This document shows, piece by piece, positions 1-64,000 of a stretch of DNA of 64,000 bases; within the stretch, counting starts at the first letter, position 1, and every line of letters starts with the position of its first letter. This stretch comes from Candidatus Roizmanbacteria bacterium (GTDB lineage: Bacteria > Patescibacteriota > Microgenomatia > UBA1406): the NCBI GenBank assembly GCA_024654535.1, contig JANLHL010000016.1, positions 160,626-224,625 on the forward strand. Direction: 5' to 3'. The position numbers and the translations under genes were made by a program. The notes below the pieces were generated by a model. That model worked only from the letters and a program-made list of their open reading frames with translations, was not told the origin of the DNA and ran no database searches.

Positions 1-210
1 ATTTTTTGTAATCCAATCATTTAATTCTTTACAGTGAGAGCAGGTCGAACCCCAAAAGTAGATAAAATCACTCTTTTTCAAATTATGCGTAGTAACAGTG
101 GTTGTTGATGTAGAAGTACTTTGATCTTTTGCAGTGAATGAATATGCCGCATACGTAATACCTAACAGCAAAAAGACAGCCGCTGCACCTATGATAAATT
201 CTTTCTTCAT
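1..210 (-). CDS. Thioredoxin-fold thiol:disulfide oxidoreductase-like protein, membrane anchored (N-terminal part only, runs off left edge)
   Basis: Not in ORF track because there is no stop in the window. Reverse complement of 1-210 reads MKKEFIIGAAAVFLLLGITYAAYSFTAKDQSTSTSTTTVTTHNLKKSDFIYFWGSTCSHCKELNDWITKN. This is an N-terminal hydrophobic anchor followed by FWGSTCSHC (CxxC), typical of the Trx/DsbA/TlpA fold. TAGACT box (rc of 217-222) lies 6 nt before the ATG. Confidence 0.65.
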   Translation of the reverse strand, partial: MKKEFIIGAAAVFLLLGITYAAYSFTAKDQSTSTSTTTVTTHNLKKSDFIYFWGSTCSHCKELNDWITKN

Positions 211-241
211 ATTGGGAGTCTAGCGCATAACTCAGAAAAAC

Positions 242-1603
242 TCAACAGCCGTTTTTCTTGTAGACTCTGTAATATGTGTTCTTGTAATACAACATCGACA
301 TGAAACGCAATACTCCTTCTTGCTCTGCTGGTTCTATATAACCAGTTATGATATAACACGAAGATTTGTTGCTGTAGTCACGATAGATTCGCTTGTTTAG
401 TAAATAAGATAGCTCTGGCGCGTTATGCCAACCAATACCAGATATCGTTTTATCCTTCAATACGTGAACTATATTAAGCTGGTCTTTCAAAAGTGTGTCT
501 TTCGAAAAAGTGGGTACGCGGCGATATTCAATAAATAAACTGTTCTCAATAAGAAAACTTGGATTACTATATAGTTTTCTTTGCCCTATCAACCCACAAC
601 TCCATAAAAAGATAGAGAACACGATCACGAAAAACCCAAATCGAGATTTGCTCCAATAGGGGAGACAAACGGCTGCACTTAAGAGAATTGGGAAAAAAGT
701 TCGATAAAAGGTATTAGGCCCAAGAAATAGATAATACAACCCATAGAAAACGCCGTAGAGAGCGATATAGAAACCAACTAATGTTCCAAAGCGAAGTGCT
801 CCTATGAAAGCAAAAACGAGAAATAGAATCAGTAACAACGGAGAAAACCCAACTATCTCTCCAAGAATTTTAAATCTACTTACAATAAGATCTACGTGTA
901 CGTGCGTCTGAGAATGAACAAAAGTCGTGTAGTTTGACACATTCTGTATATATGCTTGTACAGATCCTAACGAGCTAAAGCGAACTATCTCTCCAAGCAC
1001 AATAGGAATAAGTAAAAAAATGAAAAAACGGATACTGCTACGCAGAGAGACATGCTTCGACGTATCTGAAATTATCATGGATAAGACAAGTGGTACCAGT
1101 GCGAATACGGCACTATTTTTAGTAATGACAGCGAGGCCAATACAAATGCCAGCTTGTTGAAATCGTTTCTTTTCAAGTAAAATATAACCAGCAGTCATCC
1201 ATACAAATGCTGGTAGTTCACCGAGGATATGTGTCGAAAATAAATTTGATAGCGGTATGAGGCTAAACATAATCAGAAACACCATAAATTGAGTGAGAGA
1301 CGTATACACATACCGTACTAGTAGCCAAAAGAGTACCAACGTATATATGAGGATGACAAGACGAGGTGCCCACCACGAGAAATGTACAAGTAATGCTGCG
1401 GGCAATAGTACTGGCCACCCAGTGGTTATATGGCTATCGAAAACGGCATCGAACGTTGCATACATACCCTTTGTGTGAAGGAGTAGCGGAACTTGCAGAT
1501 TGTACCCTTCGTCAAATACTAAATGCGAAAATAGAATATTTGAACAAAGCATGAGAAACACATATACAAAGATTGTGACTGCAATCACCTTACTCAATCG
1601 CAT
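242..1603 (-). CDS. Polytopic membrane glycosyltransferase, GT-C fold (ArnT/PMT, GT39-like)
   Basis: 453-aa ORF with many hydrophobic helices. Acidic first-loop motif VFDEGYNL as in ArnT/PMT-type enzymes. TATGAT box (rc 1610-1615) 6 nt before ATG. Confidence 0.6.
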   Translation of the reverse strand: MRLSKVIAVTIFVYVFLMLCSNILFSHLVFDEGYNLQVPLLLHTKGMYATFDAVFDSHITTGWPVLLPAALLVHFSWWAPRLVILIYTLVLFWLLVRYVYTSLTQFMVFLIMFSLIPLSNLFSTHILGELPAFVWMTAGYILLEKKRFQQAGICIGLAVITKNSAVFALVPLVLSMIISDTSKHVSLRSSIRFFIFLLIPIVLGEIVRFSSLGSVQAYIQNVSNYTTFVHSQTHVHVDLIVSRFKILGEIVGFSPLLLILFLVFAFIGALRFGTLVGFYIALYGVFYGLYYLFLGPNTFYRTFFPILLSAAVCLPYWSKSRFGFFVIVFSIFLWSCGLIGQRKLYSNPSFLIENSLFIEYRRVPTFSKDTLLKDQLNIVHVLKDKTISGIGWHNAPELSYLLNKRIYRDYSNKSSCYIITGYIEPAEQEGVLRFMSMLYYKNTYYRVYKKNGC

Positions 1604-1686
1604 GGAGCAATCATACGTTACAGAGTATATATTTCAGTCGATTATAGTCTATATATAGACGGGTTTAGGCTGTTCGAATAGTAAAA

Positions 1687-3096
1687 TTATCGACCTACAC
1701 CTAACACTGCATGTGCAATATCTTTCATACGTTGTACGAATGGCAAATAAACCCTAAATTCTGGTACTGGTGTAGCAGTTGGCGGTACAGGGGTATCGGT
1801 TGGTGGAACAGGAGTTGCAGTATCGGTTGGTGTCGGTGGAACAGGAGTTGCAGTATCGGTTGGAGGTACTGGCGTTTCGGTGTCTGTCGCAGTGGCCGTT
1901 GCAGTGGCAGTATCTGTGGGCGTAGGTGTTGGCGGTGGGTCAATAAGACTATATTCTACAGCAATCATATGCATGAAACCTTCGAGATTAGTAAATTCAC
2001 CATCTGCATTATTACCATACTGCGCAATTAACTCTTTCATTCGTGCGATTGGTATTATTGCAGCGCCATCTGGTCGCAAACCTTGAGCCATTTGCATAAT
2101 CGCTGCCATTTCAGAAACCGGTATGTGCGGACCAGCCACATAATTTATGTCGTTAGGATTTACATATCCCCAGATTTGCCCTGGTAATAGCACATCGCTA
2201 TGCCCAGAATCTGCTGGATTTTGAGATGATCCCGCAATAATTACGTGTTGAGCAATATCCGGGTCGTTTGCGAGGGTGGTTCCTGGAGCAAACACGATGG
2301 TGACACCTTTCCCAGCAGCTTTAGCTATATCTGCTTTTAGTAAATTTGAGGGCTCTGTATAAGCACCATCTACAGCTACCACCGTAATACCTTTAGAATC
2401 TTTTGCAACCAAACTCATAGCAGATGCTACGGCATTAGTTTGATCCAGTAAAGACGTGTCACTTCTTGTTCTTATGACACCCGGGATGACCATACTGGCG
2501 ACTGGTGAAATTCCCGTAAGTCCCATACCGTTATCTGGTAATGAAAATGGGCTTACCATTCCGTTAGAAGCTTGATTATCAGCAAAGACTGTAAAGGTAT
2601 TATCTCCACCTTCATTCCAGTCTCGTGAATAAGGATGATTCGCAGTTCCCCTAACGACAATGGTATCTATATCTACAGGATCATTTGGGTCATAGCCAAT
2701 ACCACCGCCTAGTAGTAACACAGCATTTTGTGGGTCTGGATTGGGGTTGTTTGGATCGTACACGTATCCAGGGTGTGCTAATACGTATAATTCATTGTAT
2801 CTCGCTATGGCACTAAGGTAATCTTGCTCAGTTCCACCTGCTATTGCAGCTAATTCTGGAATCTGATGGAAATATTCTGGATCAGTTGGGACTAGCAAGT
2901 TCAACGCATCGGGTATACGATATAATTGAGCATCAGCATCTATCCCAACAGGAGCAACAGTGGCAGCTTGAGCTACTGGAGGTCTAAAGAATCTAGCTAA
3001 CCAAGGGAATGCGGCAATTGTTGCAAGTGCAGCTGCTCCAACAGAAGTATCTCTTATCAATTCACGTCTCGTTATTCCAACTCTATCTTTATCCAT
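1687..3096 (-). CDS. Secreted protein of unknown function with twin-arginine signal and Thr/Pro-rich C-terminal linker
   Basis: N-terminus MDKDRVGITRRELIRDTSVGAAALATIAAF (RR + hydrophobic core). C-terminus PPPTPTPTDTATATATATDTETPVPPTDTATPVPPTPTDTATPVPPTDTPVPPTATPVPEF followed by a 22-aa tail RVYLPFVQRMKDIAHAVLGVGR. TGtTACAAT (rc 3103-3111) 6 nt before ATG. Confidence 0.75.
   Translation of the reverse strand: MDKDRVGITRRELIRDTSVGAAALATIAAFPWLARFFRPPVAQAATVAPVGIDADAQLYRIPDALNLLVPTDPEYFHQIPELAAIAGGTEQDYLSAIARYNELYVLAHPGYVYDPNNPNPDPQNAVLLLGGGIGYDPNDPVDIDTIVVRGTANHPYSRDWNEGGDNTFTVFADNQASNGMVSPFSLPDNGMGLTGISPVASMVIPGVIRTRSDTSLLDQTNAVASAMSLVAKDSKGITVVAVDGAYTEPSNLLKADIAKAAGKGVTIVFAPGTTLANDPDIAQHVIIAGSSQNPADSGHSDVLLPGQIWGYVNPNDINYVAGPHIPVSEMAAIMQMAQGLRPDGAAIIPIARMKELIAQYGNNADGEFTNLEGFMHMIAVEYSLIDPPPTPTPTDTATATATATDTETPVPPTDTATPVPPTPTDTATPVPPTDTPVPPTATPVPEFRVYLPFVQRMKDIAHAVLGVGR
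1765..1950 (-). repeat. Coding low-complexity Thr/Pro/Ala/Asp linker with exact 29-nt direct repeat
   Basis: ggtggaacaggagttgcagtatcggttgg occurs at 1802-1830 and again at 1835-1863 (33-nt period). The surrounding sequence encodes the PT-rich linker of ORF 1687..3096. Confidence 0.85.
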
Positions 3097-3131
3097 ACTG
3101 TTATTGTAACATATAGGTTTTGTACGAAAAC

Positions 3132-4076
3132 TTAAGTCACCATTGTTCTTATCGTTGCTATTCGTCTAAGTATCATATCGTGCGTTGGCGCATGGTTTGC
3201 AGCCCCATATACCTCTACTGCAAAGCTAGCGAGCGCATTCGCCTGAATGATACTTTCCTCAATCGAAATGTTTTGGGCTATCCCTGCCAAAAAACCCGCC
3301 CGCCACGCATCGCCACCGCCACTGGGATCTACAACCTTCTTGACCGAATACGCAGGTATCGTGTATGTATTATTTTTATCTTGATATCGAGCGCCGCGTG
3401 CGCCAAGTGTCGTTATGAGCGCTATGCCTTTGTGTACTAATGCTTGGGCAGTGGTATTAAGACGTTTTAGTATTTGGGTAACCTCATACTCATTACCAGA
3501 GACGTAACGAGCGTTTAAAACCCCACGCTTTAAATCTGTGTCCGTCAACCACGACAAAGACATGCCTGAGTCATATAAATAATCGACATGTAGTGCAACA
3601 GCCTCGTTCTGAAAGTGTAAAAAACTTTTGGGGTGATTTGCCAAAATAACTACTAAACTGTGTGCGTCTATACAGGGTTTCAGTGAAATTGAACTTGATT
3701 TTTCAGATGCACCGTAATAAAAATTCCATACTTGGTTTCCGTCGAGATCGGTTACTACTGTGCCATTCGCACTATATAATGTGGTATCGCGCAAAATGTG
3801 CGTTGTTGAAAGCCTGTGTTTTTTATAGAACTGTAAAAGCTCAGCACCGTCTTTACCCACAGCACCCAATATAGTCACTTTTTCAGGGCAAAGAAACGAT
3901 AAATTATAGGCAACGTTTGTGGCAGTACCACCGAAGCGTTTTTCCATCTTGTTTGCAACAAACGACGTATTTAGCTTATCCAAATGGCGTGGATCAATGA
4001 CACTCTTAAATCGAGAAGGGAAGTGCATAATAGTATCGTACGAAATCGACCCCGTCACGATAATGGATGTATACAT
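3132..4076 (-). CDS. PfkB-family carbohydrate/nucleoside kinase (ribokinase/adenosine-kinase-like)
   Basis: C-terminal PfkB signature DPSGGGDAWRAGFLAG. N-terminus MYTSIIVTGSISYD is typical. The track ORF starts at TTG 4115, but ATG 4076 gives the canonical N-terminus. Confidence 0.8.
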   Translation of the reverse strand: MYTSIIVTGSISYDTIMHFPSRFKSVIDPRHLDKLNTSFVANKMEKRFGGTATNVAYNLSFLCPEKVTILGAVGKDGAELLQFYKKHRLSTTHILRDTTLYSANGTVVTDLDGNQVWNFYYGASEKSSSISLKPCIDAHSLVVILANHPKSFLHFQNEAVALHVDYLYDSGMSLSWLTDTDLKRGVLNARYVSGNEYEVTQILKRLNTTAQALVHKGIALITTLGARGARYQDKNNTYTIPAYSVKKVVDPSGGGDAWRAGFLAGIAQNISIEESIIQANALASFAVEVYGAANHAPTHDMILRRIATIRTMVT

Positions 4077-4127
4077 TATTGGAGGTATAGTACTATATTG
4101 AAGTTTAAAAATCAAAATTAAAATGTA

Positions 4128-5132
4128 TTAACGCACGCCATACATGGTGTCGGCGAGTGAATGAATGGTACTTATCAATTCTGAGTTTTTAAGTACAGAC
4201 TGTAGCGTACCTTCTGGCATGATTGGCTTGCCAGAGCGCATCCAATTGTTCGTTAGTGTATCTATGGTTCTCTCTATTTGTGGCGTTTTCTGAGCTGCAC
4301 TGGCAGCCATATATAAATACTGATCTCCGTGACTAGACTGCCATGGCGCCTCATTAGCAAATATAGCGTTGGCAAAAGAATTACCAACAACAAGTAATGG
4401 GAATACATCGAATATGCGCCATAGATCGCTCGTTGCATTCGTCATTTCATTTATTGCAATTGATGCACCAATTTTCTGAAGAACAGAAGTGTTCGTAATT
4501 GCTTGATTATCTGAGCTTTGAAAAGTCATTCCATCTTCTCGTAATATATTTATCAGATCCCTCTGCATTCTAAAACCAAACGCGTGTGATACATATTCTT
4601 TCGCTAAAAACTGTGCAATAATAAAATCCGTGTTCAACGTTAATTGCTCTGTTCGCCCAAGATTTATGCCAAAATACAGTGAGCTAAATGGCTTACCGGT
4701 GTGGACACTCTTATCAGGCATAGTGTATATAAATCCAGCGTTAGGATCTTGTTCCCAACTTTCGATACCAAGTGCAGCCAAAGACGCATTGTTTCTATCT
4801 GTCATTATAGGCATCGGAAATGATCCCTCGTTCACATAATCTGGAAAATCTGCTGGTCGCGAACGCGCAGTTGCTAATGCTTGGATCTGGTCAGCTGCAA
4901 ATCCATAAAAGGGGACTCTACTCCCTTTTAGATTGGCTAAGTATTTTTCCAAATCTACTTCGGCAAGGAAATCTTTACCAACAAGCCCAGGTATGTGTGA
5001 CACTGCTTCGGGATTGTATCCAGGAATAACAGCGTTTGCTCCTTCTCCTGAAGCACATGCAGCAAGCACAAGACCTAATACCGCAGCGGGTGGAATCAGG
5101 CAAAAGGCTCTCCTTGAAATATCTGTTTTCAT
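4128..5132 (-). CDS. Putative Tat-exported lipoprotein, unknown function
   Basis: MKTDISRRAFCLIPPAAVLGLVLAAC: SRRxFxL Tat-like motif plus lipobox LAAC. No recognisable catalytic motif. Confidence 0.65.
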   Translation of the reverse strand: MKTDISRRAFCLIPPAAVLGLVLAACASGEGANAVIPGYNPEAVSHIPGLVGKDFLAEVDLEKYLANLKGSRVPFYGFAADQIQALATARSRPADFPDYVNEGSFPMPIMTDRNNASLAALGIESWEQDPNAGFIYTMPDKSVHTGKPFSSLYFGINLGRTEQLTLNTDFIIAQFLAKEYVSHAFGFRMQRDLINILREDGMTFQSSDNQAITNTSVLQKIGASIAINEMTNATSDLWRIFDVFPLLVVGNSFANAIFANEAPWQSSHGDQYLYMAASAAQKTPQIERTIDTLTNNWMRSGKPIMPEGTLQSVLKNSELISTIHSLADTMYGVR

Positions 5133-5142
5133 TGAACTAATT

Positions 5143-5171
5143 ATTATAGGATATTTTTAGCATGTATACAA
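5143..5171 (-). promoter_or_regulatory. Sigma70-like promoter TTGTAT-17-TATAAT for ORF 4128..5132
   Basis: On the minus strand, TTGTAT (rc 5166-5171), exactly 17 nt, then TATAAT (rc 5143-5148), then 10 nt to ATG 5132. Confidence 0.45.
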
Positions 5172-5207
5172 GCCTAAGTGTGTAATGTAGTAAAAATATA
5201 TTTGTAT

Positions 5208-5330
5208 TTTTTGACATTTGAACTTTGACATTCAATTGGCATTTGACATTGAGATTTGGTCATTTATTTGTCATTAGAACTTTGTCATTTGACATTAATT
5301 GGATATTTGATATTGGATATTGGATATTTT
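5208..5330 (+). repeat. Heptamer array, forward orientation (TTTGACA/TTTGAAC/TTGGATA words)
   Basis: Reads tttgaca tttgaac tttgaca ttcaa ttggca tttgaca ttgaga tttggtca tttat ttgtca ttagaac tttgtca tttgaca ttaa ttggata tttgata ttggata ttggata. Same vocabulary as the nine other intergenic sites. Confidence 0.9.
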
Positions 5331-5347
5331 CCTATATACTTGTATCC

Positions 5348-6604
5348 ATGAAGCTCCGCTTTAAAAACTTCCTGGGTAACAAGTTTGTAAAAGGGGGACT
5401 CGTGTTTACTCTCGCAAATATATTCGTCAGTCTATTCAACTACCTTTTCAATTCTCTCTCTGCAAAAGCGCTTGGCCCACAGGGGTATGGCGAAATTGCT
5501 GCTTTTTTTGCCTATCTCGTAATAGTTTCTGTTCCACTGGGAATAATTTCAACACTTATTATTCAAAAGTTGGGAAGTGTCGGAGAAAATAGGGCTGTAT
5601 ACGCTCTGTCTTTTGACTTGTGGTTTCGATCGCGCATCCGTAAATGGTGGTTTCTATTCTTACTACCTATACTGGCTATCCCACTAGTGCCTCGCATTAC
5701 TAACCTCAGCCTTGTCGCGTCTATTGGCTTATCGAGTATCATAAGCATTACCATGCTCACCGGTGTGTACATAGCGCTCATACAAGGACTCCAACTCTTT
5801 ACCACTTTTAGCTTGCTGTCGGTGTCTCAAACGCTTATAAAACTTGTTGGGGCACTCTTGGTGTTTTGGAAACTTGGTAATTTGTCGACAATCATATTTT
5901 TTATTGTCGTTGGTAATGTCACGACGTACGTACTCGCGCGCATGCGTATTACTCGTTTACAAAGCGCGTTTAGTGCATTTAAACACATAACATTTGACAA
6001 TCGCATAGTACATATACTACAGAGGAAGCAAACCATAATAGCCGTATGTTCACTCATCAGCATAACCTTACTGAGCAATGCAGATATAATTTTTGTGAAG
6101 AAATTCTTTGATCCTGTCGATGCAGGGCTCTACGGTGTATGGAGTTTGTTTGCAAAAATAATTATGTATATTGCTGGTCCGCTTATATCGGTTCTCTTTA
6201 TCTTTTTTGCAGATAGTCAGGAAAAACGCATGCATGGAAAACTTCTCGTTGCAGTCACGGCGATTTTTTTGCTCGGCACGCTATGTTCATTTGCCGTCTA
6301 CCAACTATATGGAAATATTCTTCTTAGTCTTATCGCAAGTAAGGCATACAGCCCGGTACTGACGTATTTACCCATGGCTGCACTGTTTGGCGGATTGTAT
6401 GGGCTTATTACAATCTATAACAACTATTTCATAGCCCAAAATAACAAAGGGGCTCTCATAAATACATTCACTGTACCACTCTATATAGCTTCACTCTTCT
6501 TATTCGGCCACACGTTAGAAAAGGTAATTTGGGTAAATATTTACTATGGCATGTTTGTTGTCTCAATAACATGGGTATGGTTGCTTGCGTCATCAAAAGA
6601 ATAA
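5348..6604 (+). CDS. Oligosaccharide/polysaccharide flippase (Wzx-like, MOP superfamily)
   Basis: About 12 TM helices, N-terminus MKLRFKNFLGNKFVKGGLVFTLANIF typical of Wzx/RfbX proteins. Track start 5225 (TTG) translates the heptamer array, so ATG 5348 is preferred. TATACT 5335-5340 lies 7 nt upstream. Confidence 0.7.
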   Translation: MKLRFKNFLGNKFVKGGLVFTLANIFVSLFNYLFNSLSAKALGPQGYGEIAAFFAYLVIVSVPLGIISTLIIQKLGSVGENRAVYALSFDLWFRSRIRKWWFLFLLPILAIPLVPRITNLSLVASIGLSSIISITMLTGVYIALIQGLQLFTTFSLLSVSQTLIKLVGALLVFWKLGNLSTIIFFIVVGNVTTYVLARMRITRLQSAFSAFKHITFDNRIVHILQRKQTIIAVCSLISITLLSNADIIFVKKFFDPVDAGLYGVWSLFAKIIMYIAGPLISVLFIFFADSQEKRMHGKLLVAVTAIFLLGTLCSFAVYQLYGNILLSLIASKAYSPVLTYLPMAALFGGLYGLITIYNNYFIAQNNKGALINTFTVPLYIASLFLFGHTLEKVIWVNIYYGMFVVSITWVWLLASSKE

Positions 6605-6634
6605 ATGTGTTTTGCATAGTGTATACTTTCACTT

Positions 6635-7375
6635 ATGAAGCAAAGTGGACATTTTTTAAGCCTCATCATTCCCGTCTATAAACAAGAGAGTACTGTTGTC
6701 AAAAATGTTCAGGAAATTCAAAAAGTACTCGACACTATCCGCTACGACTACGAAGTACTTATTGTAATAGATGGGCTAGTCGATCAATCACACGAACTGT
6801 TAAAAAAAGCTCATATACCAAAAACAAGGATCATTTACTTTAAAAAAAATCAGGGAAAAGCTTTTGCAATACGCACCGGTATGGAAAAAGCAAAAGGCGA
6901 CTACATAATGTTTATGGATTCGGGTATGGAGATAGACCCAAATGGCATTTCTATGTTACTTGAGCACATGGAGTGGTACAACGCAGACATTATAGTGGGG
7001 AGCAAGCGTCATCAGGCGTCGCAAGTGCAGTATTCCAGACAGCGCAAAGTATTAAGTTACGGCTATTACTATATTGTGAAACTCATGTTTGGTATAAAGG
7101 TTACCGATACGCAGGCTGGTATAAAAATATTTAAGAAAAATGTACTCAAAAAAATACTTCCCAAGCTTGTTGAAAAAAAATTCGTCGGCGATCTTGAAAT
7201 GCTCGTTGCTGCAAAAAGCTTAGGGTTCGACAGAATCTACGAAGCACCTATTAAGCTCAGCTATGCCATTGGCCCGCTCTCGAGCGCAGCAACGGTACAG
7301 TCTATAGCAGGAATTCTTCTCGATACGCTTGCTATTTGGTACAGGGTGTTTATTCTGAAGTGGTATACCAAATAA
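6635..7375 (+). CDS. GT2 glycosyltransferase (polyprenol-phosphate sugar transferase-like)
   Basis: LSLIIPVYKQESTV, IVIDGLVDQS and FMDSGMEIDP (DxD-type) motifs of GT-A/GT2. Confidence 0.8.
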   Translation: MKQSGHFLSLIIPVYKQESTVVKNVQEIQKVLDTIRYDYEVLIVIDGLVDQSHELLKKAHIPKTRIIYFKKNQGKAFAIRTGMEKAKGDYIMFMDSGMEIDPNGISMLLEHMEWYNADIIVGSKRHQASQVQYSRQRKVLSYGYYYIVKLMFGIKVTDTQAGIKIFKKNVLKKILPKLVEKKFVGDLEMLVAAKSLGFDRIYEAPIKLSYAIGPLSSAATVQSIAGILLDTLAIWYRVFILKWYTK

Positions 7376-7407
7376 AAGCACACATATCCTTATTCTAATA
7401 ACCGCTA

Positions 7408-7416
7408 TGCTATACT
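7408..7416 (+). promoter_or_regulatory. Extended -10 box TGcTATACT, 6 nt before ATG 7423
   Basis: tgctatact at 7408-7416, spacer tttcac, then ATG. No SD. Confidence 0.45.
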
Positions 7417-7422
7417 TTTCAC

Positions 7423-8499
7423 ATGGTGAAAAAGACCCGCTATTGTTTTTTTGTTGGCACACAAGCCGAGCTTATAAAACTTCTCCCCGTTATCCGTGAA
7501 TTTGAAAAAAGAAACATACCCTTTACCTTTATTTCTTCAGGGCAAAATGAACTATCAAAAGAACTTTTAGGTAACGCACACGTCGATATACAGCTTCACG
7601 AAAAAATATTATTTCCCCACATGATTTGGGTAATCGTGTGGTTTTTCCAAACGATGTTGCGAGGTTTTTTTATCATTAATAAACGCATCAAACGATCTGA
7701 ACGCGGCATAATGCTAATCCATGGTGACACTATTTCAAGCCTTATGGGTGCACTGCTCGGTAGGGCACTCGGCTTTAAAATCGCACACATAGAGGCAGGT
7801 CTCCGATCATTTAAACTAACGTCTCCATTTCCTGAAGAGATAGATCGCCTTATAATCTCAAAACTTACAACCTACCATTTCTGCCCAAATAAATGGTCAT
7901 GTGACAACCTTAAGCAAACACGAGGAATAAAAATAGACACAGAGCAAAATACACTGTGGGAACAATATCAAAAAGCTTCCATGAAAAAAATCGCATTAGA
8001 TACTACCCTACATAAACCTTATTTCTTATTCGTTATTCACCGGCAAGAAAACCTTTATAACAGGGAACTGGTGACTTCATTAGTCTCTGAAATTGTTAAA
8101 CAATCTGATCAACTCAACGCAGTATTCATACTGCATGAGCCGACAAAAATAGCACTTATACAATACAACCTCCTAGACACGTTGAAGAAAAATAAAAACG
8201 TTATTCTTCTCCCTCGTCAAGATTATTACCTATTTTCAAAAATCATTGAAAACAGCCAGTTTATGGTCACCGACGGTGGCAGTAACCAAGAGGAGTCGTA
8301 TTACATGGGAAAGCCATGCTTAGTATTGCGAACAGTTACTGAGCGTATCGAAGGCTTAGGAGAGAACGTCGTTATGAGCAATAATAAACTCGAAACAATT
8401 CATGATTTTTTTGTTCACTATAAAAAATATGTGAGAAAACCCCTGGTGACTGCGGCAAAACCGAGTGAAATAATCGTTGACTACTTACAAAACATATGA
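7423..8499 (+). CDS. UDP-N-acetylglucosamine 2-epimerase-like (WecB/MnaA family)
   Basis: GTQAELIKLLPV, IHGDTISSLMGALLG, AHIEAGLRSF and PFPEEIDRLIISKL match the HGDT / EAGLR / PEE-NR signatures of non-hydrolysing UDP-GlcNAc 2-epimerases. Confidence 0.8.
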   Translation: MVKKTRYCFFVGTQAELIKLLPVIREFEKRNIPFTFISSGQNELSKELLGNAHVDIQLHEKILFPHMIWVIVWFFQTMLRGFFIINKRIKRSERGIMLIHGDTISSLMGALLGRALGFKIAHIEAGLRSFKLTSPFPEEIDRLIISKLTTYHFCPNKWSCDNLKQTRGIKIDTEQNTLWEQYQKASMKKIALDTTLHKPYFLFVIHRQENLYNRELVTSLVSEIVKQSDQLNAVFILHEPTKIALIQYNLLDTLKKNKNVILLPRQDYYLFSKIIENSQFMVTDGGSNQEESYYMGKPCLVLRTVTERIEGLGENVVMSNNKLETIHDFFVHYKKYVRKPLVTAAKPSEIIVDYLQNI

Positions 8500-9515
8500 C
8501 AAATCCCACAATAAGCGTAGTTATGCCCACGCTGAATTCTGAGAAAACTCTGGAACAGTCACTTATATCGATAACGAATCAAACATTCTCACAAGATCGG
8601 ATAGAAATACTCGTTGTAGACGGTGGTTCAACAGATACAACTATTTCAATAGCCAAAAAATATAACTGCACCATTCTAAAAAACTTGCGCAAACTTCCAG
8701 AATTTGCAAAACACATTGGCATACGACGTGCTCGTGGACAGTACTGCGTGTTTCTCGATTCAGATGAAGTGCTGACAAACAAAGAGTCACTCAAAACAAA
8801 ATACGAACTCATGGAGCAAAATAGTACCATAAAAAATTGCCTCATCGGTGGGCTTGTAAATCCTTCTCACTATCCATTTATAAATGAGTATGCAAGCCAT
8901 ATTGGCGATCCATTTTCATATTTCATGTACGGTATCGACGCTGGAAATTATAGGCAGAGTTTAGAAAGTAAATTTAAATCAAAGACGAGGCACGACAGGT
9001 ACATACTCTATACAGTTACTAATGAAACGCTACCAATCTGCGACGGTGGGGGACACTTCTTTGATCTGTCTTACCTAAAAAATAATTTCGATATACGAAA
9101 TGAAAAAATTGTCTCTACTATCTTTGAACGCATGGTAGGCAAAACAAAACACTTTGCGATTGTGAAAAATGATTTTGTGCTGCACTATTCAAACACGAGT
9201 GTACGAAAATACTTAAGCAAGATTAGATGGCGAGTCATTGGAAATATACATTACTCGAAAGAAAACATTACCGGATTTTCAGAAAGAGAAAAATCACAAA
9301 CGCTCCTTTTCAGAATCAAAAAATTATTATTTATTCCACTATCTATTTTTCTTATTTGGCCTATCTATTCTTCTGTCATACTTATGAATAAAAATAAAAA
9401 TATTTTATATGCAACCCATATACTGTTTTCAATCTACACAGCGATACTTATTTTATTTTATTACGCATTACGATTTTTAAATATAAAACCAAGAATATCA
9501 GTCTACGGAAAATGA
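8496..9515 (+). CDS. GT2 glycosyltransferase with C-terminal membrane helices
   Basis: ISVVMPTLNSEKTLEQSL, VVDGGSTDTT and FLDSDEVL motifs. Start overlaps the previous stop (ATGA). Confidence 0.8.
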   Translation: MTNPTISVVMPTLNSEKTLEQSLISITNQTFSQDRIEILVVDGGSTDTTISIAKKYNCTILKNLRKLPEFAKHIGIRRARGQYCVFLDSDEVLTNKESLKTKYELMEQNSTIKNCLIGGLVNPSHYPFINEYASHIGDPFSYFMYGIDAGNYRQSLESKFKSKTRHDRYILYTVTNETLPICDGGGHFFDLSYLKNNFDIRNEKIVSTIFERMVGKTKHFAIVKNDFVLHYSNTSVRKYLSKIRWRVIGNIHYSKENITGFSEREKSQTLLFRIKKLLFIPLSIFLIWPIYSSVILMNKNKNILYATHILFSIYTAILILFYYALRFLNIKPRISVYGK

Positions 9516-9519
9516 TAAT

Positions 9520-12126: not shown

Positions 12127-12200
12127 TATCCAATATCAAATATCCAATATCCAATAAAGTTCAAATGTCAAATGTCAAAATCAGATACTTGTCATTTGCA
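12125..12200 (-). repeat. Heptamer array, reverse orientation (TATCCAA/TGTCAAA words)
   Basis: aatatccaatatcaaatatccaatatccaataaagttcaaatgtcaaatgtcaaaatcag is the reverse complement of the vocabulary at 5208-5330. Confidence 0.9.
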
Positions 12201-12214
12201 TATAGGCTATAAGT

Positions 12215-12573: not shown

Positions 12574-12576
12574 CTT

Positions 12577-54305: not shown

Positions 54306-54342
54306 ATAAATAGTATACAGCCCTGGACCATATGGTGCAGGG

Positions 54343-54476
54343 AATATCCAATAGCAAATAAAGTCCCAATTCCCAATGTCAAAGGTCAAATGACAAATGT
54401 CAGAATTGGACATTGGAACTTTGTCATTTGTCATTCGTCATTCGTCATTCATTTGACATTGGATATTGGATATTGG
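54343..54476. repeat. Palindromic heptamer element C (reverse half then forward half, no core)
   Basis: 54343-54404 holds reverse words (aatatccaatagcaaataaagtcccaattcccaatgtcaaaggtcaaatgacaaatgtcag). 54405-54476 holds forward words, including the exact 7-nt register TTTGTCA TTTGTCA TTCGTCA TTCGTCA TTC (54421-54450) and TTGGATA TTGGATA. Confidence 0.9.
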
Positions 54477-54498: not shown

Positions 54499-54525
54499 TG
54501 GATACTTCTACCCTCCACATTCCTC

Positions 54526-54555
54526 TTGACAATACCTTGAGAGATGATCCATACT
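54526..54555 (+). promoter_or_regulatory. Candidate promoter TTGACA-18-CATACT
   Basis: TTGACA 54526-54531, 18-nt spacer, CATACT 54550-54555. Same hexamer pair as the rSAM promoter at 12608. It would start a roughly 170-nt leader ending at the 54729 terminator. Confidence 0.4.
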
Positions 54556-54604
54556 GTAATCTCTTGCAATTCTAGTAGTATAAATAGTAAAATATATAAC
54601 TAAT

Positions 54605-54676
54605 ATGTATAAAGACGTTTTGAGAACCGTTATTTTCAGCATCCTCCTCCTTGCAAAAGCGAGGGCGGATGTTTGA
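54605..54676 (+). CDS. Candidate 23-codon leader peptide MYKDVLRTVIFSILLLAKARADV
   Basis: ATG 54605 to TGA 54674-54676. The Ile-Leu-Leu-Leu run (54641-54652) lies on attenuator segment A. The ORF ends just after segment B. TATATA 54593-54598 lies 6 nt upstream. Too short for the ORF track. Confidence 0.3.
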   Translation: MYKDVLRTVIFSILLLAKARADV

Positions 54677-54729
54677 TGGTTTTCAAGACTTCCAGAAAAT
54701 ATCCGCCCGCTAGCCGGGCGGATTTTTTT
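54640..54729 (+). promoter_or_regulatory. Four-segment terminator/antiterminator (attenuator-like) structure
   Basis: Four segments: A CATCCTCC (54640-54647), B GGGCGGATG (54663-54671), C ATCCGCCCG (54701-54709), D CGGGCGGAT (54715-54723) followed by T-run to 54729. A:B pairs 7 of 8, B:C is 8 bp perfect, C:D is 9 bp perfect plus the U-tract, which makes an intrinsic terminator. B and D are direct repeats competing for C. Confidence 0.6.
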
Positions 54730-54761
54730 ATAAGTTAAAACAGGAATGGAGATGAATATAT

Positions 54762-54959
54762 ATGCCAGATATAGATACACAAACAGGTACTGAATATGTA
54801 TTACCAGTAACAGTAGATACCGCAGTCATAGCAATAGGAACAGCTGCTACAGTATCTGCTGTAGAAGCGCAACGACTGTTATTAGAACAAGTCCATGCAC
54901 AGTATGGTACCGATCCTAGACAAATAGCTGCAGCATTTCAAAATTCAGGAATGCAATAA
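54762..54959 (+). CDS. Small hypothetical protein (65 aa)
   Basis: MPDIDTQTGTEYVLPVTVDTAVIAIGTAATVSAVEAQRLLLEQVHAQYGTDPRQIAAAFQNSGMQ. One of the few starts with a GGAG (54748-54751) 10 nt upstream. Bracketed by the attenuator and a strong terminator. Confidence 0.55.
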   Translation: MPDIDTQTGTEYVLPVTVDTAVIAIGTAATVSAVEAQRLLLEQVHAQYGTDPRQIAAAFQNSGMQ

Positions 54960-55016: not shown

Positions 55017-55087
55017 CGCTCTGTATGATAGAATATAGACAAGCACGATATCTGTCTTTATACAAGTAAAGAAGAAGTGCATCAATA

Positions 55088-55504
55088 ATGTCAGTAGATA
55101 ACTTAAGACGTCGCTTCACACACATATTTTTATCGGCAATGATCGCGCTGACCATATCTAGTTGCGTTGATAGGCAAAATTCATTAGACGAGGCCACTCC
55201 ACCCTGCTTGCCCGTAGAATGGGTTCAATTGATCCCTCGGGGAGATTTTACATACATAGGTTCAGTAATAGTAATGAATAGTGGAGGTGAGCTTATTGTA
55301 GATCCAAATACACGAAATCAACCGACTGTAAAGGACGGGAATATAGTAATGACAACAAATGATGGGGTACAAGTTGCTGTTAATCCAGATAATAACTTGA
55401 TGTTATTTAATCAAGGTCTTGCACACTATTTCATTTATCCCCAACAAGAACCATACGACTCTATCAGAGCTACTGTTATTAAAACATGTGATCAAGCAAT
55501 TTAA
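55088..55504 (+). CDS. Small putative lipoprotein
   Basis: MSVDNLRRRFTHIFLSAMIALTISSCVDRQ: signal peptide plus lipobox ISSC. No family recognised. Confidence 0.6.
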   Translation: MSVDNLRRRFTHIFLSAMIALTISSCVDRQNSLDEATPPCLPVEWVQLIPRGDFTYIGSVIVMNSGGELIVDPNTRNQPTVKDGNIVMTTNDGVQVAVNPDNNLMLFNQGLAHYFIYPQQEPYDSIRATVIKTCDQAI

Positions 55505-55559: not shown

Positions 55560-55637
55560 AGTCTCTCTTCGTTAGTGCTTTCTATAGGATACACACATAT
55601 ATTGCGTATATTGTACGTTCACGTTACAATTGGTCGT

Positions 55638-56234
55638 ATGAATACCTCACTTACCGTAATAACAGGCCCTATGTTTAGCGGGAAAAGCGAAGAGTTGGTA
55701 CGACATCTGCGGCGATATGCCATTGCAAATATTCCAGCAAAAGTATTTAATCACGCTCTCGACATACGCTATGGCAAAAAAAAGATTATTTCACATTCGA
55801 AGGAATCGTGGGATTCAATTCCGATAAAAACAGGGGCACAAATACTTTCTCAAATAACGGCTGACACAAAAGTCGTTGTCATAGACGAGGTACAATTTTT
55901 TAACGAAGACGTTATTATGGTTATTTCCCATATGCTCTACCGTAACATAAATGTTATTGCTGCTGGACTCGATACCGACTTTCGCGGTGAACCTTTTGGC
56001 CCAATAGGATCGCTACTATGCATGGCAGAAAAGATCATAAAATTAAAGGCAGTCTGTAGCGTATGTCACGAATGGAACGCAACTCGTACGCAACGACTAC
56101 TAAATAATGGGGAACCAGCACCCTACACTGATCCGCTCATAAAAGTGGGCGCACTCGATTCATACCAGGCTCGTTGTCATAGTCATCATGATCTTCCGGA
56201 AGCCCCATTCAATACTATTTTACAAAAAAAATGA
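55638..56234 (+). CDS. tdk: Thymidine kinase
   Basis: LTVITGPMFSGKSEEL (P-loop), VIDEVQFF, zinc-ribbon cysteines CSVC ... ARCHSHH. ATG 55638 preferred over track start 55575. TACAAT 55625-55630 lies 7 nt upstream. Confidence 0.9.
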   Translation: MNTSLTVITGPMFSGKSEELVRHLRRYAIANIPAKVFNHALDIRYGKKKIISHSKESWDSIPIKTGAQILSQITADTKVVVIDEVQFFNEDVIMVISHMLYRNINVIAAGLDTDFRGEPFGPIGSLLCMAEKIIKLKAVCSVCHEWNATRTQRLLNNGEPAPYTDPLIKVGALDSYQARCHSHHDLPEAPFNTILQKK

Positions 56235-56812
56235 AACGACTATTTTCATACATACCGTCAATCTCAACACTAGAAAGATACATACTCCCAAGCTTACTAA
56301 TACTTTTTTTTATCCAATTTCACTACTATAAATTTTATGCTCAAAAATTCGGTGAAATTGCACACTACACAGATACGTCGAAACCAAATATGTACGAACA
56401 AATTCAAAACCAACACCAATACGCAGAGCTCTATCAGCTTGCCAACAAATATAGAAATACCAATGTTCAATTATTTCTTGTAACAACTCTCCAGGAAAGG
56501 GAATATCTCGATTATGTGACTACCTACTATCAAAATCAAAATAGTAATCAAAAAAAAACTCCCGTATACCTCACTGAATTAAAATTAATGACAAACTACT
56601 TCTTCTATCCGAGAGTAGTACGCAGTTATTCGCTTCGTCAATTTAAGAAACTAAAACCTATTCCCAATTCAATCGTCATAGCAGATCTAGATTTACGATA
56701 TTCTTTACCGATACAATCCACACTTGTCCAGATACCGACTGGACCAAAGCAATATATTATGAATATTAAAAAAGTTCCAAAGCCATATTATTTATTTAAT
56801 GTAACACAATGA
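56231..56812 (+). CDS. Hypothetical membrane-anchored protein
   Basis: 193 aa with one N-terminal TM helix (LPSLLILFFIQF). ATGA overlaps on both sides (tdk upstream, membrane protein downstream). Confidence 0.6.
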   Translation: MKRLFSYIPSISTLERYILPSLLILFFIQFHYYKFYAQKFGEIAHYTDTSKPNMYEQIQNQHQYAELYQLANKYRNTNVQLFLVTTLQEREYLDYVTTYYQNQNSNQKKTPVYLTELKLMTNYFFYPRVVRSYSLRQFKKLKPIPNSIVIADLDLRYSLPIQSTLVQIPTGPKQYIMNIKKVPKPYYLFNVTQ

Positions 56813-59509: not shown

Positions 59510-59737
59510 TTATACAACGAGGCGGTAATACGTACCTGTTTCATCGACGCCATAATCGATAGAGTGAAAAATTCCACCACCAAATTCTTCCCTTGCCCAT
59601 CTATGAAACTGCTGTTTCAAAACTTGTATCGCACCAGGTGTTAATTGATCGCTCCGCAACAAAACCCAGCCCTCTTCTGCACAATAAATCTCACTAATCT
59701 TACCTTGGACTGGTAACGGTAAATCTGGAGATGACAT
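59510..59737 (-). CDS. Small hypothetical protein (75 aa)
   Basis: No competing ORF. Own extended -10 TGgTATAGT (rc 59743-59751) 5 nt before ATG 59737, matching the window-wide start architecture. Confidence 0.55.
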   Translation of the reverse strand: MSSPDLPLPVQGKISEIYCAEEGWVLLRSDQLTPGAIQVLKQQFHRWAREEFGGGIFHSIDYGVDETGTYYRLVV

Positions 59738-59790
59738 AGTGTACTATACCACACACTTGTCTGAGCTTGAGTGAATCTCACTATAATTAT

Positions 59791-60567
59791 TTATTTCTGC
59801 AAAACTCCCTCGAGCAAAAGCCTCATGCGAGATGACGCTTTGGTCGCCTGAAATAATACCTGCTTATGATCGTGTTTTACAAACGCCAGATTAGTGACAA
59901 AAGACAAACCCAATACCCTCATGCGTAGTGATTTCGCCATGAGCACTTCTGGAACCGTGCTCATACCAACAACGTCAGCCCCTAAAAACTTCAGGGCCAT
60001 TTTATCGGCAGGAGTTTCATAATGAGGACCGCGTACATAACTATACACGCCTTCGTGAAATGAAAAGTTATTTTCTACACATACTTCTTTTGCTTTTTTT
60101 GCAAGCTCAACATCAAAAACGCTGCTCATATCGACAAAATTCGCTCCGAAAAGAGGGTTGTAACTTCCCAGAAAAAGAGTGAGTAGGTCTGAAAGAATTA
60201 TAATATCACCGACAGCATATTTTTCGTTTAAAGCGCCACTCGCAGACGTTATGATGAGTGTTTTAGCAGAAGCTTTTTGAAATAGTTTAATTGGAAGAGT
60301 AGCATCGATACCTGAATGACCTTCGTATGTATGAAAACGACCAGACATACACGCAACTTTTCTTCCACCAATATCGACTATAACTAAACGGCCCTCATGA
60401 CCCGGAACGGTTGACGCAGCGCCAAACAAATCACTATAACCTATGTCAATGATTCGCGTTTTTCCATCGACTATAGAGTTCCAACCGCTGCCGAGCATAA
60501 GCACGGTATCTGGAAAGTGTGGTATAGCTTTTTTCAATATGGCGAACGACTTCTCAAGCGTAAACAT
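59791..60567 (-). CDS. Purine nucleoside phosphorylase (trimeric PNP/MTAP family)
   Basis: VPGHEGRLV, SGRFHTYEGHS and GADVVGMSTVPEVLMA signatures. ATG 60567 preferred. TGtTACAAT (rc 60574-60582) 6 nt upstream. Confidence 0.85.
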   Translation of the reverse strand: MFTLEKSFAILKKAIPHFPDTVLMLGSGWNSIVDGKTRIIDIGYSDLFGAASTVPGHEGRLVIVDIGGRKVACMSGRFHTYEGHSGIDATLPIKLFQKASAKTLIITSASGALNEKYAVGDIIILSDLLTLFLGSYNPLFGANFVDMSSVFDVELAKKAKEVCVENNFSFHEGVYSYVRGPHYETPADKMALKFLGADVVGMSTVPEVLMAKSLRMRVLGLSFVTNLAFVKHDHKQVLFQATKASSRMRLLLEGVLQK

Positions 60568-60574
60568 AGGTGCA

Positions 60575-60604
60575 TTGTAACAAAACTTGCGCAAGAGGTA
60601 TACT
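60575..60604 (+). promoter_or_regulatory. Promoter TTGTAA-18-TATACT, overlapping the divergent PNP promoter
   Basis: ttgtaa 60575-60580, 18-nt spacer, tatact 60599-60604, then 6 nt to ATG 60611. The same 43-bp region carries the minus-strand TGtTACAAT. Confidence 0.45.
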
Positions 60605-60610
60605 CATACC

Positions 60611-60787
60611 ATGACCCAAAAAACCTTTACTATGGCAGGCTTTACCATAGGATCGCTTTTAGGTTCATACATTCCAACACTTTTTGGCGCAGGTATGTTA
60701 TCGTACACTTCTGTGCTCGTTAGCGGTGTAGGTGGTATCGCTGGGATATACATTGGTTATAAACTGGGCTCTAGCTTCGGAAACTAA
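60611..60787 (+). CDS. Small glycine-zipper membrane protein
   Basis: MTQKTFTMAGFTIGSLLGSYIPTLFGAGMLSYTSVLVSGVGGIAGIYIGYKLGSSFGN: two hydrophobic Gly-rich helices. Confidence 0.55.
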   Translation: MTQKTFTMAGFTIGSLLGSYIPTLFGAGMLSYTSVLVSGVGGIAGIYIGYKLGSSFGN

Positions 60788-62558: not shown

Positions 62559-62849
62559 TTAGGGAGTAGGAGTTTGCATTGCTTCGATCTGACTATATAC
62601 ATCTCCAAGTTTTCTTGCTGCCTCAGTTGCAACTGCTCTATATTCCTCATCAACAGCTTTTGCTTGATCGGCTGTTAATGTTGCTGCAGGAGTTGGTGTT
62701 TCATACACTGGTACAGGTATTTTCGAATCGTTTGAATCGCACCCGCTCACAAACAACATAGCAAGTATCAAACTCGTTGCAATAGAATTTCTCATTGTGT
62801 GGTGTTCGTTACCAAAAGCAGAGAAGGGTGTATACTTCAAGATATCCAT
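62559..62849 (-). CDS. Small putative lipoprotein
   Basis: MRNSIATSLILAMLFVSGCDSNDS (lipobox VSGC) begins at internal ATG 62795. The track start 62849 has TGaTATTAT (rc 62855-62863) 5 nt upstream, so the start is ambiguous. Confidence 0.55.
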   Translation of the reverse strand: MDILKYTPFSAFGNEHHTMRNSIATSLILAMLFVSGCDSNDSKIPVPVYETPTPAATLTADQAKAVDEEYRAVATEAARKLGDVYSQIEAMQTPTP

Positions 62850-62936
62850 ATCCTATAATATCATAAACCGAACAGTATGTCTACTTCATTGTGTTCTATT
62901 GTCAAAACAGGATCAATACAAATCTATAAACTAATC

Positions 62937-63800
62937 TTAGTTTGACATTTCGTGAGGGAGTGAAAAGACATGGATTCCGCTATCAGTTATCCATTCTTCA
63001 CGTTCTCCAAAAAGCAACGCTGGATAATTTGGCTTAACTTCTTTAGCCAAACATAAATTGAAGCTTAAATCACCGGCGGCCAATCTCAAAGTGGCAGCTT
63101 GTGCAGTATCGGTGAAAGTTGCTTTAATTCCAGCTCTCTGTAATTGTTCGTATGAAAATGGATCACCTACCACCTCCCAACCTGTATTCATTGGAACGAC
63201 TTTGTCTGGGAGAAAAATAAGAATTGGTGGGCTACTGTCACCACTTTGTATCCCTAATCGTCTTGCTATCTGATTATCTTGAGTTATCAAACTTCCATAA
63301 GATATGTCACCCATTACGTCCCGACGATTTAGAACATCGCGACTTACCGAGAGAGTTTCCACTACTGGCGAAACGTCCTCTGGCAAATGGAGTAACTTAA
63401 CCTGACTTTCTAATCTTCCATTACCACCATTTGGTGTAGCGTAGATAAATTTATATTCAGTAGACCCGGCAGGTTGATTACTCTGCGATAAATAAGGATG
63501 GCGCGTACACAACTCTACAAAGTCAGGCATGATTAATTGACTTGATCCGCCAAGAGCGTCTGCGCCTATTTTCATTTCTGTAGTATGAAAATCAATATTC
63601 CTGCCTTCACGATTTCTATATCTAAAATATGAAATATCTCCTTCTGAACAAGAACTACAAACTCTTTGGTCTTGGTCTAAAATATTAAGTAGACTACGAT
63701 CAAACTGAAGCGATGGGCGAGCAGCTTTCATAATATAATTTTCTCCATTTGAAAGAGGGGGTTGATTCAGATATCCTGTGTATATATCTACCTTACTCAT
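62937..63800 (-). CDS. Hypothetical protein
   Basis: ATG 63800 (MSKVDIYTGYLNQ...) is preceded on the minus strand by TTGACT (rc 63831-63836), 17 nt, TAGAAT (rc 63808-63813), then 7 nt. Track start 63836 (TTG) lies inside that promoter. Confidence 0.6.
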   Translation of the reverse strand: MSKVDIYTGYLNQPPLSNGENYIMKAARPSLQFDRSLLNILDQDQRVCSSCSEGDISYFRYRNREGRNIDFHTTEMKIGADALGGSSQLIMPDFVELCTRHPYLSQSNQPAGSTEYKFIYATPNGGNGRLESQVKLLHLPEDVSPVVETLSVSRDVLNRRDVMGDISYGSLITQDNQIARRLGIQSGDSSPPILIFLPDKVVPMNTGWEVVGDPFSYEQLQRAGIKATFTDTAQAATLRLAAGDLSFNLCLAKEVKPNYPALLFGEREEWITDSGIHVFSLPHEMSN

Positions 63801-64000
63801 GAATGTAATTCTACAATAAATATATGTAATAGTCAAATACTATAGGAGTATATTTAGACGTACGCTTTTAATACCTTCTTGAATAAAGGGTATAGAAAGG
63901 AGACAAGAAGAGATTTACATATAACTACAGGATAAGTTATATATCACTTTTTGCAAAAATAAAGGGTTGCTGTTGTTTAAGTGATTATTAGTTCAATCCT

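Follow-up and report, generated by a model that had tools for sequence, protein, structure and literature searches.

We analysed a 64-kb window (the whole stretch of DNA considered here) on contig JANLHL010000016.1 of a Candidatus Roizmanbacteria bacterium, with 37% G+C and about 60 genes, among which cell-envelope glycopolymer functions predominate. The genes code for GT-C/PMT_2 mannosyltransferase-like membrane proteins, glycosyltransferases, an LCP transferase, a MurJ-like flippase, a radical-SAM protein, an HtrA protease and an 812-aa fusion of ATP-grasp and D-Ala-D-Ala-ligase modules. Our subject is how these genes start: a -10 box lies a few nucleotides before the start codon of most transcription units, and Shine-Dalgarno (SD) sites occur at chance level, suggesting that most of the units are probably transcribed without a leader. 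TGA is a stop codon in the window (long open reading frames, ORFs, under code 11; nine ATGA junctions), and tRNA and Rfam scans found no tRNA and no Rfam-recognisable RNA, including rRNA, within it. The best matches of the 812-aa fusion, a single protein, in labelled genomes came from metagenome-assembled genomes (MAGs) of Peribacteria, Peregrinibacteria and the 'Patescibacteria group' (57-59% identity). This one protein would place the source in or close to the Peregrinibacteria-Peribacteria lineage; the window contains no marker genes. Two close relatives were recovered by a metagenome scan, L081 (95% aa identity) and L082 (93% aa identity), which are syntenic with positions 34.4-57 kb of the window at 76-89% nucleotide identity.

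A preliminary description of the window had quoted 23 such -10 boxes, some with TGn extensions or as -35/-10 pairs, and each was found at its coordinates with the start codon 4-7 nt downstream. Three equally good cases were absent from that list (37451, 47192 and 18854) and were added. In the following lines the figures between motifs are nucleotides, and the position of the start codon stands in brackets.

208-222, minus strand: TAGACT-6-ATG(210), opening a partial ORF that runs off the left end of the window and has a signal-anchor and CxxC thioredoxin-like N-terminus
1601-1615, minus strand: TATGAT-6-ATG(1603)
3094-3111, minus strand: TGtTACAAT-6-ATG(3096), extended -10
5335-5350, plus strand: TATACT-7-ATG(5348), with a heptamer-repeat array adjoining the box upstream
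6622-6637, plus strand: TATACT-7-ATG(6635)
7408-7425, plus strand: TGcTATACT-6-ATG(7423), extended -10
12608-12645, plus strand: TTGACA-17-(TGc)CATACT-6-GTG(12643), radical SAM protein, with a perfect -35, a non-canonical first -10 base and the sole GTG start of the set
15235-15248, minus strand: TATAAT-5-ATG(15237)
18804-18819, minus strand: TATAAT-7-ATG(18806), member of a divergent pair
18839-18856, plus strand: TGgTACAAT-6-ATG(18854), added here, the third ATG of ATGATGATG
19816-19854, plus strand: TTGATT-18-TATAAT-6-ATG(19852)
32576-32591, plus strand: TAAACT-7-ATG(32589), 110-aa ORF
33164-33180, plus strand: TGtTATAAT-5-ATG(33178), extended -10
34410-34424, plus strand: TATAAT-6-ATG(34422), MurJ-like flippase, with box, spacing and first 11 residues identical in L082
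37436-37453, plus strand: TGaTAGACT-6-ATG(37451), added here
40366-40383, minus strand: TGcTAAAAT-6-ATG(40368), opposite the 40416 promoter within 47 nt of intergenic DNA
40401-40418, plus strand: TGcTAGGAT-6-ATG(40416), conserved in L082
44410-44427, minus strand: TGcTATACT-6-ATG(44412), conserved in L081 and L082, with a product beginning MSTILVTGAGGYIGS
47190-47224, minus strand: TTGACT-16-TATAAT-4-ATG(47192), added here, with both boxes conserved in L081 and L082
54303-54317, minus strand: TATACT-6-ATG(54305), conserved in L082, with a palindrome (54321-54342) directly upstream
55625-55640, plus strand: TACAAT-7-ATG(55638), box kept in L082 with the upstream sequence diverged, product beginning MNTSLTVITGPMFSGKSE
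59735-59751, minus strand: TGgTATAGT-5-ATG(59737), 75-aa ORF at 59510-59737
60565-60582, minus strand: TGtTACAAT-6-ATG(60567)
60575-60613, plus strand: TTGTAA-18-TATACT-6-ATG(60611), opening a 58-aa hydrophobic ORF at 60611-60787
62847-62863, minus strand: TGaTATTAT-5-ATG(62849), 96-aa ORF
63798-63836, minus strand: TTGACT-17-TAGAAT-7-ATG(63800)

The start at 18854 was chosen because its box touches the first ATG (18848) of ATGATGATG, which makes the third ATG the likely leaderless start. Since 60611 opens the 58-aa ORF, the 559-aa gene at 60819 is internal to that unit. The starts that the preliminary description gave to small ORFs (60611 and 59737) are plausible. The two ORFs concerned, 60611-60787 (plus) and 59510-59737 (minus), fall below the 80-aa cut-off and each has a textbook leaderless promoter; the former codes for a glycine-rich hydrophobic peptide of 58 aa (MTQKTFTMAGFTIGSLLGSYIPTLFGAG...) and the latter for a soluble protein of 75 aa, and both lie outside the region covered by L081 and L082.

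In a window of 37% G+C promoter-like strings are common, and the boxes could have arisen by chance in AT-rich intergenic DNA, together with a choice of starts fitted to the pattern. To avoid circularity, starts were picked without regard to motifs, as the first in-frame ATG in 58 long ORFs read from stop to stop. A TANNNT hexamer ended 5-7 nt before this ATG in 23 of the 58, compared to 142 of 2235 (6.4%) at all other ATGs of the window (binomial p ≈ 3e-13) and to an average of 7.6 of 58 in other 3-nt offset windows. The preliminary description had taken hexamers equally frequent at all offsets as the outcome that would speak against it, and this outcome was not observed; 2000 dinucleotide-preserving shuffles of the upstream 45 nt gave only 7.7 ± 2.5 (maximum 17; z = 6.1). 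The gap peaked at 6 nt for these first ATGs (13 cases, followed by 7 nt with 7 and 5 nt with 4), and for 25 hexamer-anchored starts it was 6 nt in 15, 7 nt in 6, 5 nt in 3 and 4 nt in 1. Annotated starts of E. coli K-12, used as a negative control, had the -10 motif in 2 of 42 cases. A start-agnostic scan of all ATGs opening at least 100 codons also peaked at a gap of 6 nt (20 versus about 10), swamped by internal ATGs, and was replaced by the first-ATG test and by the comparison of operon heads with internal genes. A generic -35/-10 consensus scan of positions 1-20000 returned 54 sites versus 75.2 ± 10.2 in dinucleotide shuffles, that is, fewer than in shuffled sequence, and is therefore blind to such promoters in AT-rich DNA, where only the positional test is informative. 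The deficit of full-consensus sites could reflect selection against spurious intragenic promoters, given promoters that need little beyond an extended -10. With the motif-blind enrichment, the E. coli control and the conservation of boxes in relatives (see below) against it, we regard the chance explanation as already refuted.

A second explanation is that the TA-rich hexamer is a translational signal on leadered mRNAs and no promoter, namely a non-SD site for binding the ribosome or S1, Bacteroidota-like and corresponding to group B of GeneMarkS-2. The absence of SD sites and the A/T-rich upstream regions would suit such a signal, and group B motifs likewise lie a few nucleotides before starts (PMC6028130). 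However, a group B motif also precedes internal genes, whereas here the hexamer was found at a gap of 4-8 nt in 23 of 36 operon heads (genes with 25 nt or more to the upstream gene, or with a divergent neighbour) and in only 4 of 22 internal genes (Fisher p = 7e-4). Its composition also shows sigma-70 features, among them a TAnAnT-type preference: the consensus reads TATA(A/C)T, position 4 is A in 22 of 25, an extended TGn is present in 11 of 25 (44%, compared to 4.7% of all TANNNT in the window; p = 6.5e-9), and a -35-like hexamer (at least 4 of 6 matches, 16-18 nt away) accompanies 10 of 25 (background 13.7%; p = 1e-3). At 47192, TTGACT and TATAAT are invariant in the window, L081 and L082 and the 16-nt spacer between them diverges. 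Moreover, the divergent pairs 18806/18854 and 40368/40416 hold both of their -10 boxes within intergenic regions of 41-47 nt, which therefore have no room for leaders, let alone for an upstream promoter and a leader. On this evidence a purely translational signal is very improbable.

A pyrimidine precedes the start codon in 23 of 26 cases (52% in the background; p = 8.7e-5). Bacterial transcription start sites (TSSs) lie mainly 7 bp after the -10 element and are centred on a Y-R-Y 'start' triplet, according to an analysis of 49 species (PMC12641261). With a gap of 6 nt followed by (C/T)-A-T, +1 therefore falls on the A of the ATG. These features support the view that the boxes are sigma-70 promoters predicted to fire at the A of the ATG. 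In the two divergent regions (40369-40415 and 18807-18853) extended -10 boxes point in opposite directions and each -35 zone overlaps the partner's -10 box; an inverted repeat, TGTGCTA...TAGCACA, spans 40375-40409. The overlap suggests that the paired promoters may compete or be transcriptionally coupled.

The claim that SD sites are almost absent was borne out. An SD core (GGAG, GAGG or AGGA with a 3-14 nt spacer) was present at 3 of 57 starts (about 5%), the same level as at control offsets (2 versus 3), compared to 24 of 42 (57%) for the E. coli starts in the same test. SD was at chance level in all gene classes of the window, and just upstream of internal genes G was depleted and A enriched (A at -5 in 15 of 22). 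No rRNA is encoded in the L081 and L082 loci, and among 160 related loci 16S 3' ends were present only in distant ones (L023, L035, L123, L136 and L140), where the anti-SD is canonical (CACCTCCTTTCT). Internal cistrons instead show stop/start overlaps, and all twelve that had been quoted are real, nine of the ATGA type and three of 8 nt:

8496-8499, plus strand: ATGA overlap, internal cistron
10388-10395, plus strand: 8-nt overlap ATGACTAA
11122-11125, plus strand: ATGA overlap
23378-23381, plus strand: ATGA overlap
24556-24559, plus strand: ATGA overlap
26437-26440, plus strand: ATGA overlap
29350-29353, plus strand: ATGA overlap
39631-39634, minus strand: ATGA overlap
50101-50108, minus strand: 8-nt overlap ATGGCTGA
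51093-51102, minus strand: junction TTGAATAGTATG, which can be read as a TTG start (51102) with 8 nt of overlap or as an ATG (51093) 1 nt past the stop
56231-56234, plus strand: ATGA overlap
56809-56812, plus strand: ATGA overlap

As the junction TTGAATAGTATG is invariant in L081 and L082, the relatives do not decide between 51102 and 51093.

A third explanation accepts the promoters and questions the starts: many of the ATGs would not be translation starts, or the TSSs would scatter, and short leaders would be followed by SD-independent initiation further downstream in an A/U-rich, low-structure context. The start at 47192 has a gap of just 4 nt, which makes a second ATG (47177), 15 nt further on, a possible alternative start on a short leader; alignments with distant homologues do not begin before residue 6-14. 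Good boxes lie 10 and 15 nt upstream of 5132 and 59412, implying leaders of 4-9 nt, and the distance from -10 to TSS is unusually variable in N. lyticus, the sole species of the Candidate Phyla Radiation (CPR) with TSS data (PMC12641261). Against this, conservation is codon-periodic from codon 2 of the proposed ORFs onwards (codons 2-11 are 87% identical at positions 1+2 versus 61% at position 3; p = 3e-6), and for most genes tblastn alignments with relatives extend back to residue 1-2. The proposed ATGs also yield canonical N-termini, such as MSTILVTGAGGYIGS of a Rossmann-fold epimerase (GxGxxG, 44412), MNTSLTVITGPMFSGKSE of a thymidine-kinase-type P-loop (55638) and the signal anchor of 210. 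The gaps are tight, and a pyrimidine stands at -1. Taken together, misassigned ATGs or scattered TSSs are an unlikely general explanation.

The boxes themselves are conserved at the proposed starts. At all eight alignable heads of the leaderless type, a TANNNT precedes the same ATG by 4-7 nt in L081 and/or L082; the same box is kept at six of the eight. At 37451 it has turned over (TAGACT-6 in the window versus TATACT-7-ATG in L082, with the same ATG), and at 40368 it has shifted by 1 nt (TGcTAAAAT-6 versus TGtTAGAAT-7 in L082). Ungapped identity was 85% in the hexamer and 60% in the promoter spacer, compared to 86% at codon positions 1+2 and 59% at position 3. Further away, an orthologue of 37451 in L154 has TGgTATAAT-6-ATG, and the orthologue of 60567 in a Woesebacteria MAG locus (L067) has GGAGG-4-ATG on a leader.

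The preliminary description had called the architecture window-wide, which holds for most transcription units (about 26 of some 36 candidate heads) and fails for the remainder. Several observations speak against a general leaderless start, beginning with the heads that lack a correctly placed box (5132, 16981, 31270, 35761, 48615, 52081, 53291, 54762, 55088 and 59412) and including the short leaders implied for 5132 and 59412 and the narrow gap at 47192. Six of these heads (16981, 31270, 35761, 48615, 52081 and 53291) follow a same-strand gene at a distance of 25-108 nt and may be co-transcribed with it; if genes so placed are co-transcribed, the fit rises to about 26 of 30 heads. Two others of the ten are exceptions of another kind:

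54748-54764, plus strand: GGAG-10-ATG(54762), the sole conserved SD-like site in the window, before a 65-aa ORF (54762-54959)
55026-55090, plus strand: extended -10 TGaTAGAAT (55026-55034) about 53 nt before ATG 55088, conserved

The GGAG at 54748-54751 had already been singled out as an exception; it is real and conserved in L082, and it hints that anti-SD pairing may still work in the organism. With its promoter about 53 nt upstream, the predicted transcript of 55088 has a leader, without an SD. In addition, the nearest labelled relatives (56-63% identity, 41-59% GC) gave no sharp -10 peak in a crude, start-agnostic test, and the trait may be restricted to a lineage, or the crude test may be too weak for these next-closest relatives. 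Higher-GC relatives (L001-L005, L083-L100) likewise had no sharp peak with the first-ATG heuristic, which may fail at 45-59% GC. Finally, the 64 kb carry genes of a single functional class and may be unrepresentative of the genome as a whole.

On balance we consider it likely that most of these units are leaderless, with 0-2 nt before the start codon. In the mechanism that we propose, housekeeping sigma-70-type promoters with the consensus TGnTATA(A/C)T and a weak or dispensable -35 would have the final T of their -10 hexamer 6 nt (range 4-7) upstream of the start codon. Transcription would then begin at the A of (C/T)ATG and yield mRNAs without a 5' untranslated region. At the first cistron, a ribosome carrying initiator tRNA would directly recognise the 5'-terminal AUG without SD pairing, and at downstream cistrons terminating ribosomes would re-initiate at the overlaps (ATGA or 8 nt) or after crossing a very short, A-rich spacer. 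We infer the actual 5' ends, the initiation pathway and the coupling of cistrons from what is established for leaderless systems.

The intergenic regions also contain eleven arrays of degenerate 7-nt repeats (TTGGATA / TTGACAT / TTGTCAT, e.g. ATTGGAT x4.4), in either orientation:

5211-5329: heptamer array
12125-12198: heptamer array
12477-12570: heptamer array
32427-32475: heptamer array
32936-33066: heptamer array
34319-34405: heptamer array
35682-35723: heptamer array
37120-37175: heptamer array
37331-37400: heptamer array
44680-44727: heptamer array
54343-54475: heptamer array

In several cases only a few nucleotides separate the array from the leaderless -10 box downstream of it (5348 and 34422); others lie up to about 100 nt upstream (33178 and 37451) or just beyond gene ends. 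The arrays create spurious TTG-started extensions of ORFs. Among the 161 sequences compared, clusters of these heptamers were present only in the window, L081 and L082. The arrays could be -35/UP-like sequence or arrays for protein binding, and presumably resemble the heptameric short tandemly repeated repetitive (STRR) sequences of cyanobacteria. Adjoining the -10 box of 54305, a palindrome, CCCTGCACC-ATAT-GGTCCAGGG in minus-strand reading, occupies 54321-54342; its counterpart in L082, CCCTACACC-ATAT-GGTGTAGGG, is perfectly palindromic, its two arms having changed in pairs. This pattern of change suggests that the element is probably an operator for a dimeric regulator.

A non-coding stretch on the plus strand (54526-54729) is about 90% conserved with L082, as judged by eye, compared to about 76% for the flanking genes. 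Its promoter is TTGACA-18-CATACT, of which the two boxes, unlike the spacer, are conserved in L082. The predicted transcript of about 165 nt folds to -62 kcal/mol with a long hairpin, and one stem carries a compensatory change (CCTTGC/GCGAGG in the window versus CCTTAC/GTAAGG in L082). It ends in a predicted intrinsic terminator (54703-54729), followed by the conserved GGAG and the 65-aa ORF (together 54748-54959). The element had no Rfam match, and nhmmer matched it only in L082; it is a candidate for a new small RNA or an attenuator-type leader. A minus-strand ORF across this region (54508-54780) was considered as an SD-led gene (AAGGAGGAGG-ATG, 54642) and dropped, because its SD is not conserved in the L082 alignment and the region is the conserved plus-strand non-coding element.

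Relatives of the 812-aa fusion (gene at 44754-47192, minus strand) occur, at 44-63% identity, in hundreds of contigs with CPR, DPANN and Elusimicrobia labels. The ATP-grasp module of the fusion is L-amino-acid-ligase-like, and in several CPR loci (L023, L035, L123, L136 and L140) the fusion gene lies a few kb from a 16S rRNA gene. Many MAG contigs titled 'uncultured Gammaproteobacteria/Pseudomonadales' (L007, L008, L010, L012, L013 and others) carry the fusion gene at 45-57% identity, and in this identity range and in their low GC they resemble the CPR-labelled contigs; their titles are probably taxonomic mislabels.

The 138 other non-redundant loci carrying the fusion gene, mostly CPR, provided a wider pool. 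In these loci TANNNT peaked 6-8 nt before first ATGs (128, 100 and 111, versus about 57 at far offsets), and the share with TGn was 30% at a gap of 6 nt and 19% over gaps of 5-8 nt, compared to 8% at gaps of 12-39 nt (p = 3e-9). SD cores were weakly enriched in the pool. The per-locus excess of the -10 signal placed the window 7th of 101 and correlated negatively with SD frequency (rho = -0.25, p = 0.012). Several loci (L035, L123 and L136) combine a strong -10 signal and almost no SD, yet have a canonical anti-SD in the adjacent 16S gene. It is conceivable, although we lean against it, that the lineage abandoned SD-guided initiation for a haloarchaeon-like regime in which nearly all units would be leaderless, driven by bacterial extended -10 promoters, and internal cistrons would be reached by re-initiation. 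The trait may even be common, though unrecognised, across the CPR, perhaps in connection with reduced ribosomes (loss of bS21).

Such starts matter for annotation. Gene callers tuned to SD will misplace starts in such genomes, where the longest ORF, as often in this window, runs into upstream repeats, and small leaderless genes (for example 60611-60787 and 59510-59737) will escape them. The -10-to-ATG rule is an independent means of fixing starts in CPR MAGs. It also provides a simple design rule for CPR expression cassettes (TGnTATAAT, 6 nt, ATG, no ribosome-binding site) at a time when CPR genetics is only beginning.

The closest known parallel is group C of GeneMarkS-2 (Mycobacterium tuberculosis, Streptomyces, Corynebacterium and Deinococcus deserti), in which a Pribnow box precedes first-in-operon starts by 6-8 nt and is absent before internal genes, an architecture that is the rule in Actinobacteria and Deinococcus-Thermus (PMC6028130). 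The window resembles this group in its modal gap of 6-7 nt, in a signal specific to operon heads and in ATG/GTG starts predicted to stand at the mRNA 5' end. It differs in that the other genes of group C use SD, whereas SD in the window is at chance level in all classes, and in that the host is a low-GC CPR bacterium with a prominent extended TGn (44%). The share of heads that would be leaderless is also higher, about 70-85% compared to 25-50% predicted for group C and 167 of 262 measured in D. deserti (PMC6028130).

A second parallel is the SD-scarce class (Peribacter riflensis, SR1 and some Parcubacteria), in which the SD share is likewise very low: according to one account, Ca. Peribacter riflensis has 7% SD genes, against about 5% in the window, and no conserved CCUCC (PMC10783764). 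That account is one of SD/anti-SD loss, and its available part makes no mention of a -10 box at the start codon or of leaderless transcription (PMC10783764). Peregrinibacteria are frequently without bS21 (PMC9297842). Flavobacteriia, as representatives of group B, have leadered mRNAs with an A-rich non-SD context, unlike the window.

The window also shares with archaeal regimes (Haloferax, Halobacterium and Sulfolobus; group D) that most units appear leaderless, that internal cistrons often overlap and that SD plays little or no role. In contrast to archaea, with a TATA box about 26 nt upstream and TBP/TFB, it has a bacterial -10 or extended -10, and its genes are bacterial (LCP, MurJ, Ddl). 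In the table of 36 heads, no column from -26 to -30 exceeded 0.22 bits, which is no higher than the blurred -10 columns.

Termination-reinitiation coupling at ATGA-type overlaps is a general prokaryotic phenomenon, on which Huber et al. 2019 have reportedly worked, and most bacteria have an SD within the upstream gene that helps re-initiation. The nine ATGA and three 8-nt overlaps of the window are of this kind, with a presumed functional coupling, but unlike most coupled genes they have no SD, and the 6 nt upstream are A-rich.

In the full-text literature searched, no paper treating leaderless mRNA in a CPR lineage was found; 'leaderless' occurred in the opened matches only in passing or in reference lists, which is not proof of absence. 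If the proposed reading is true, one more lineage, with small genomes and reduced ribosomes, relies mainly on leaderless translation, which bears on the joint simplification of ribosomes and loss of SD and on leaderless initiation as an ancestral or default pathway. Other bacteria already use this mechanism, which is not new; the window differs from them in the host lineage and in the complete lack of an SD signal.

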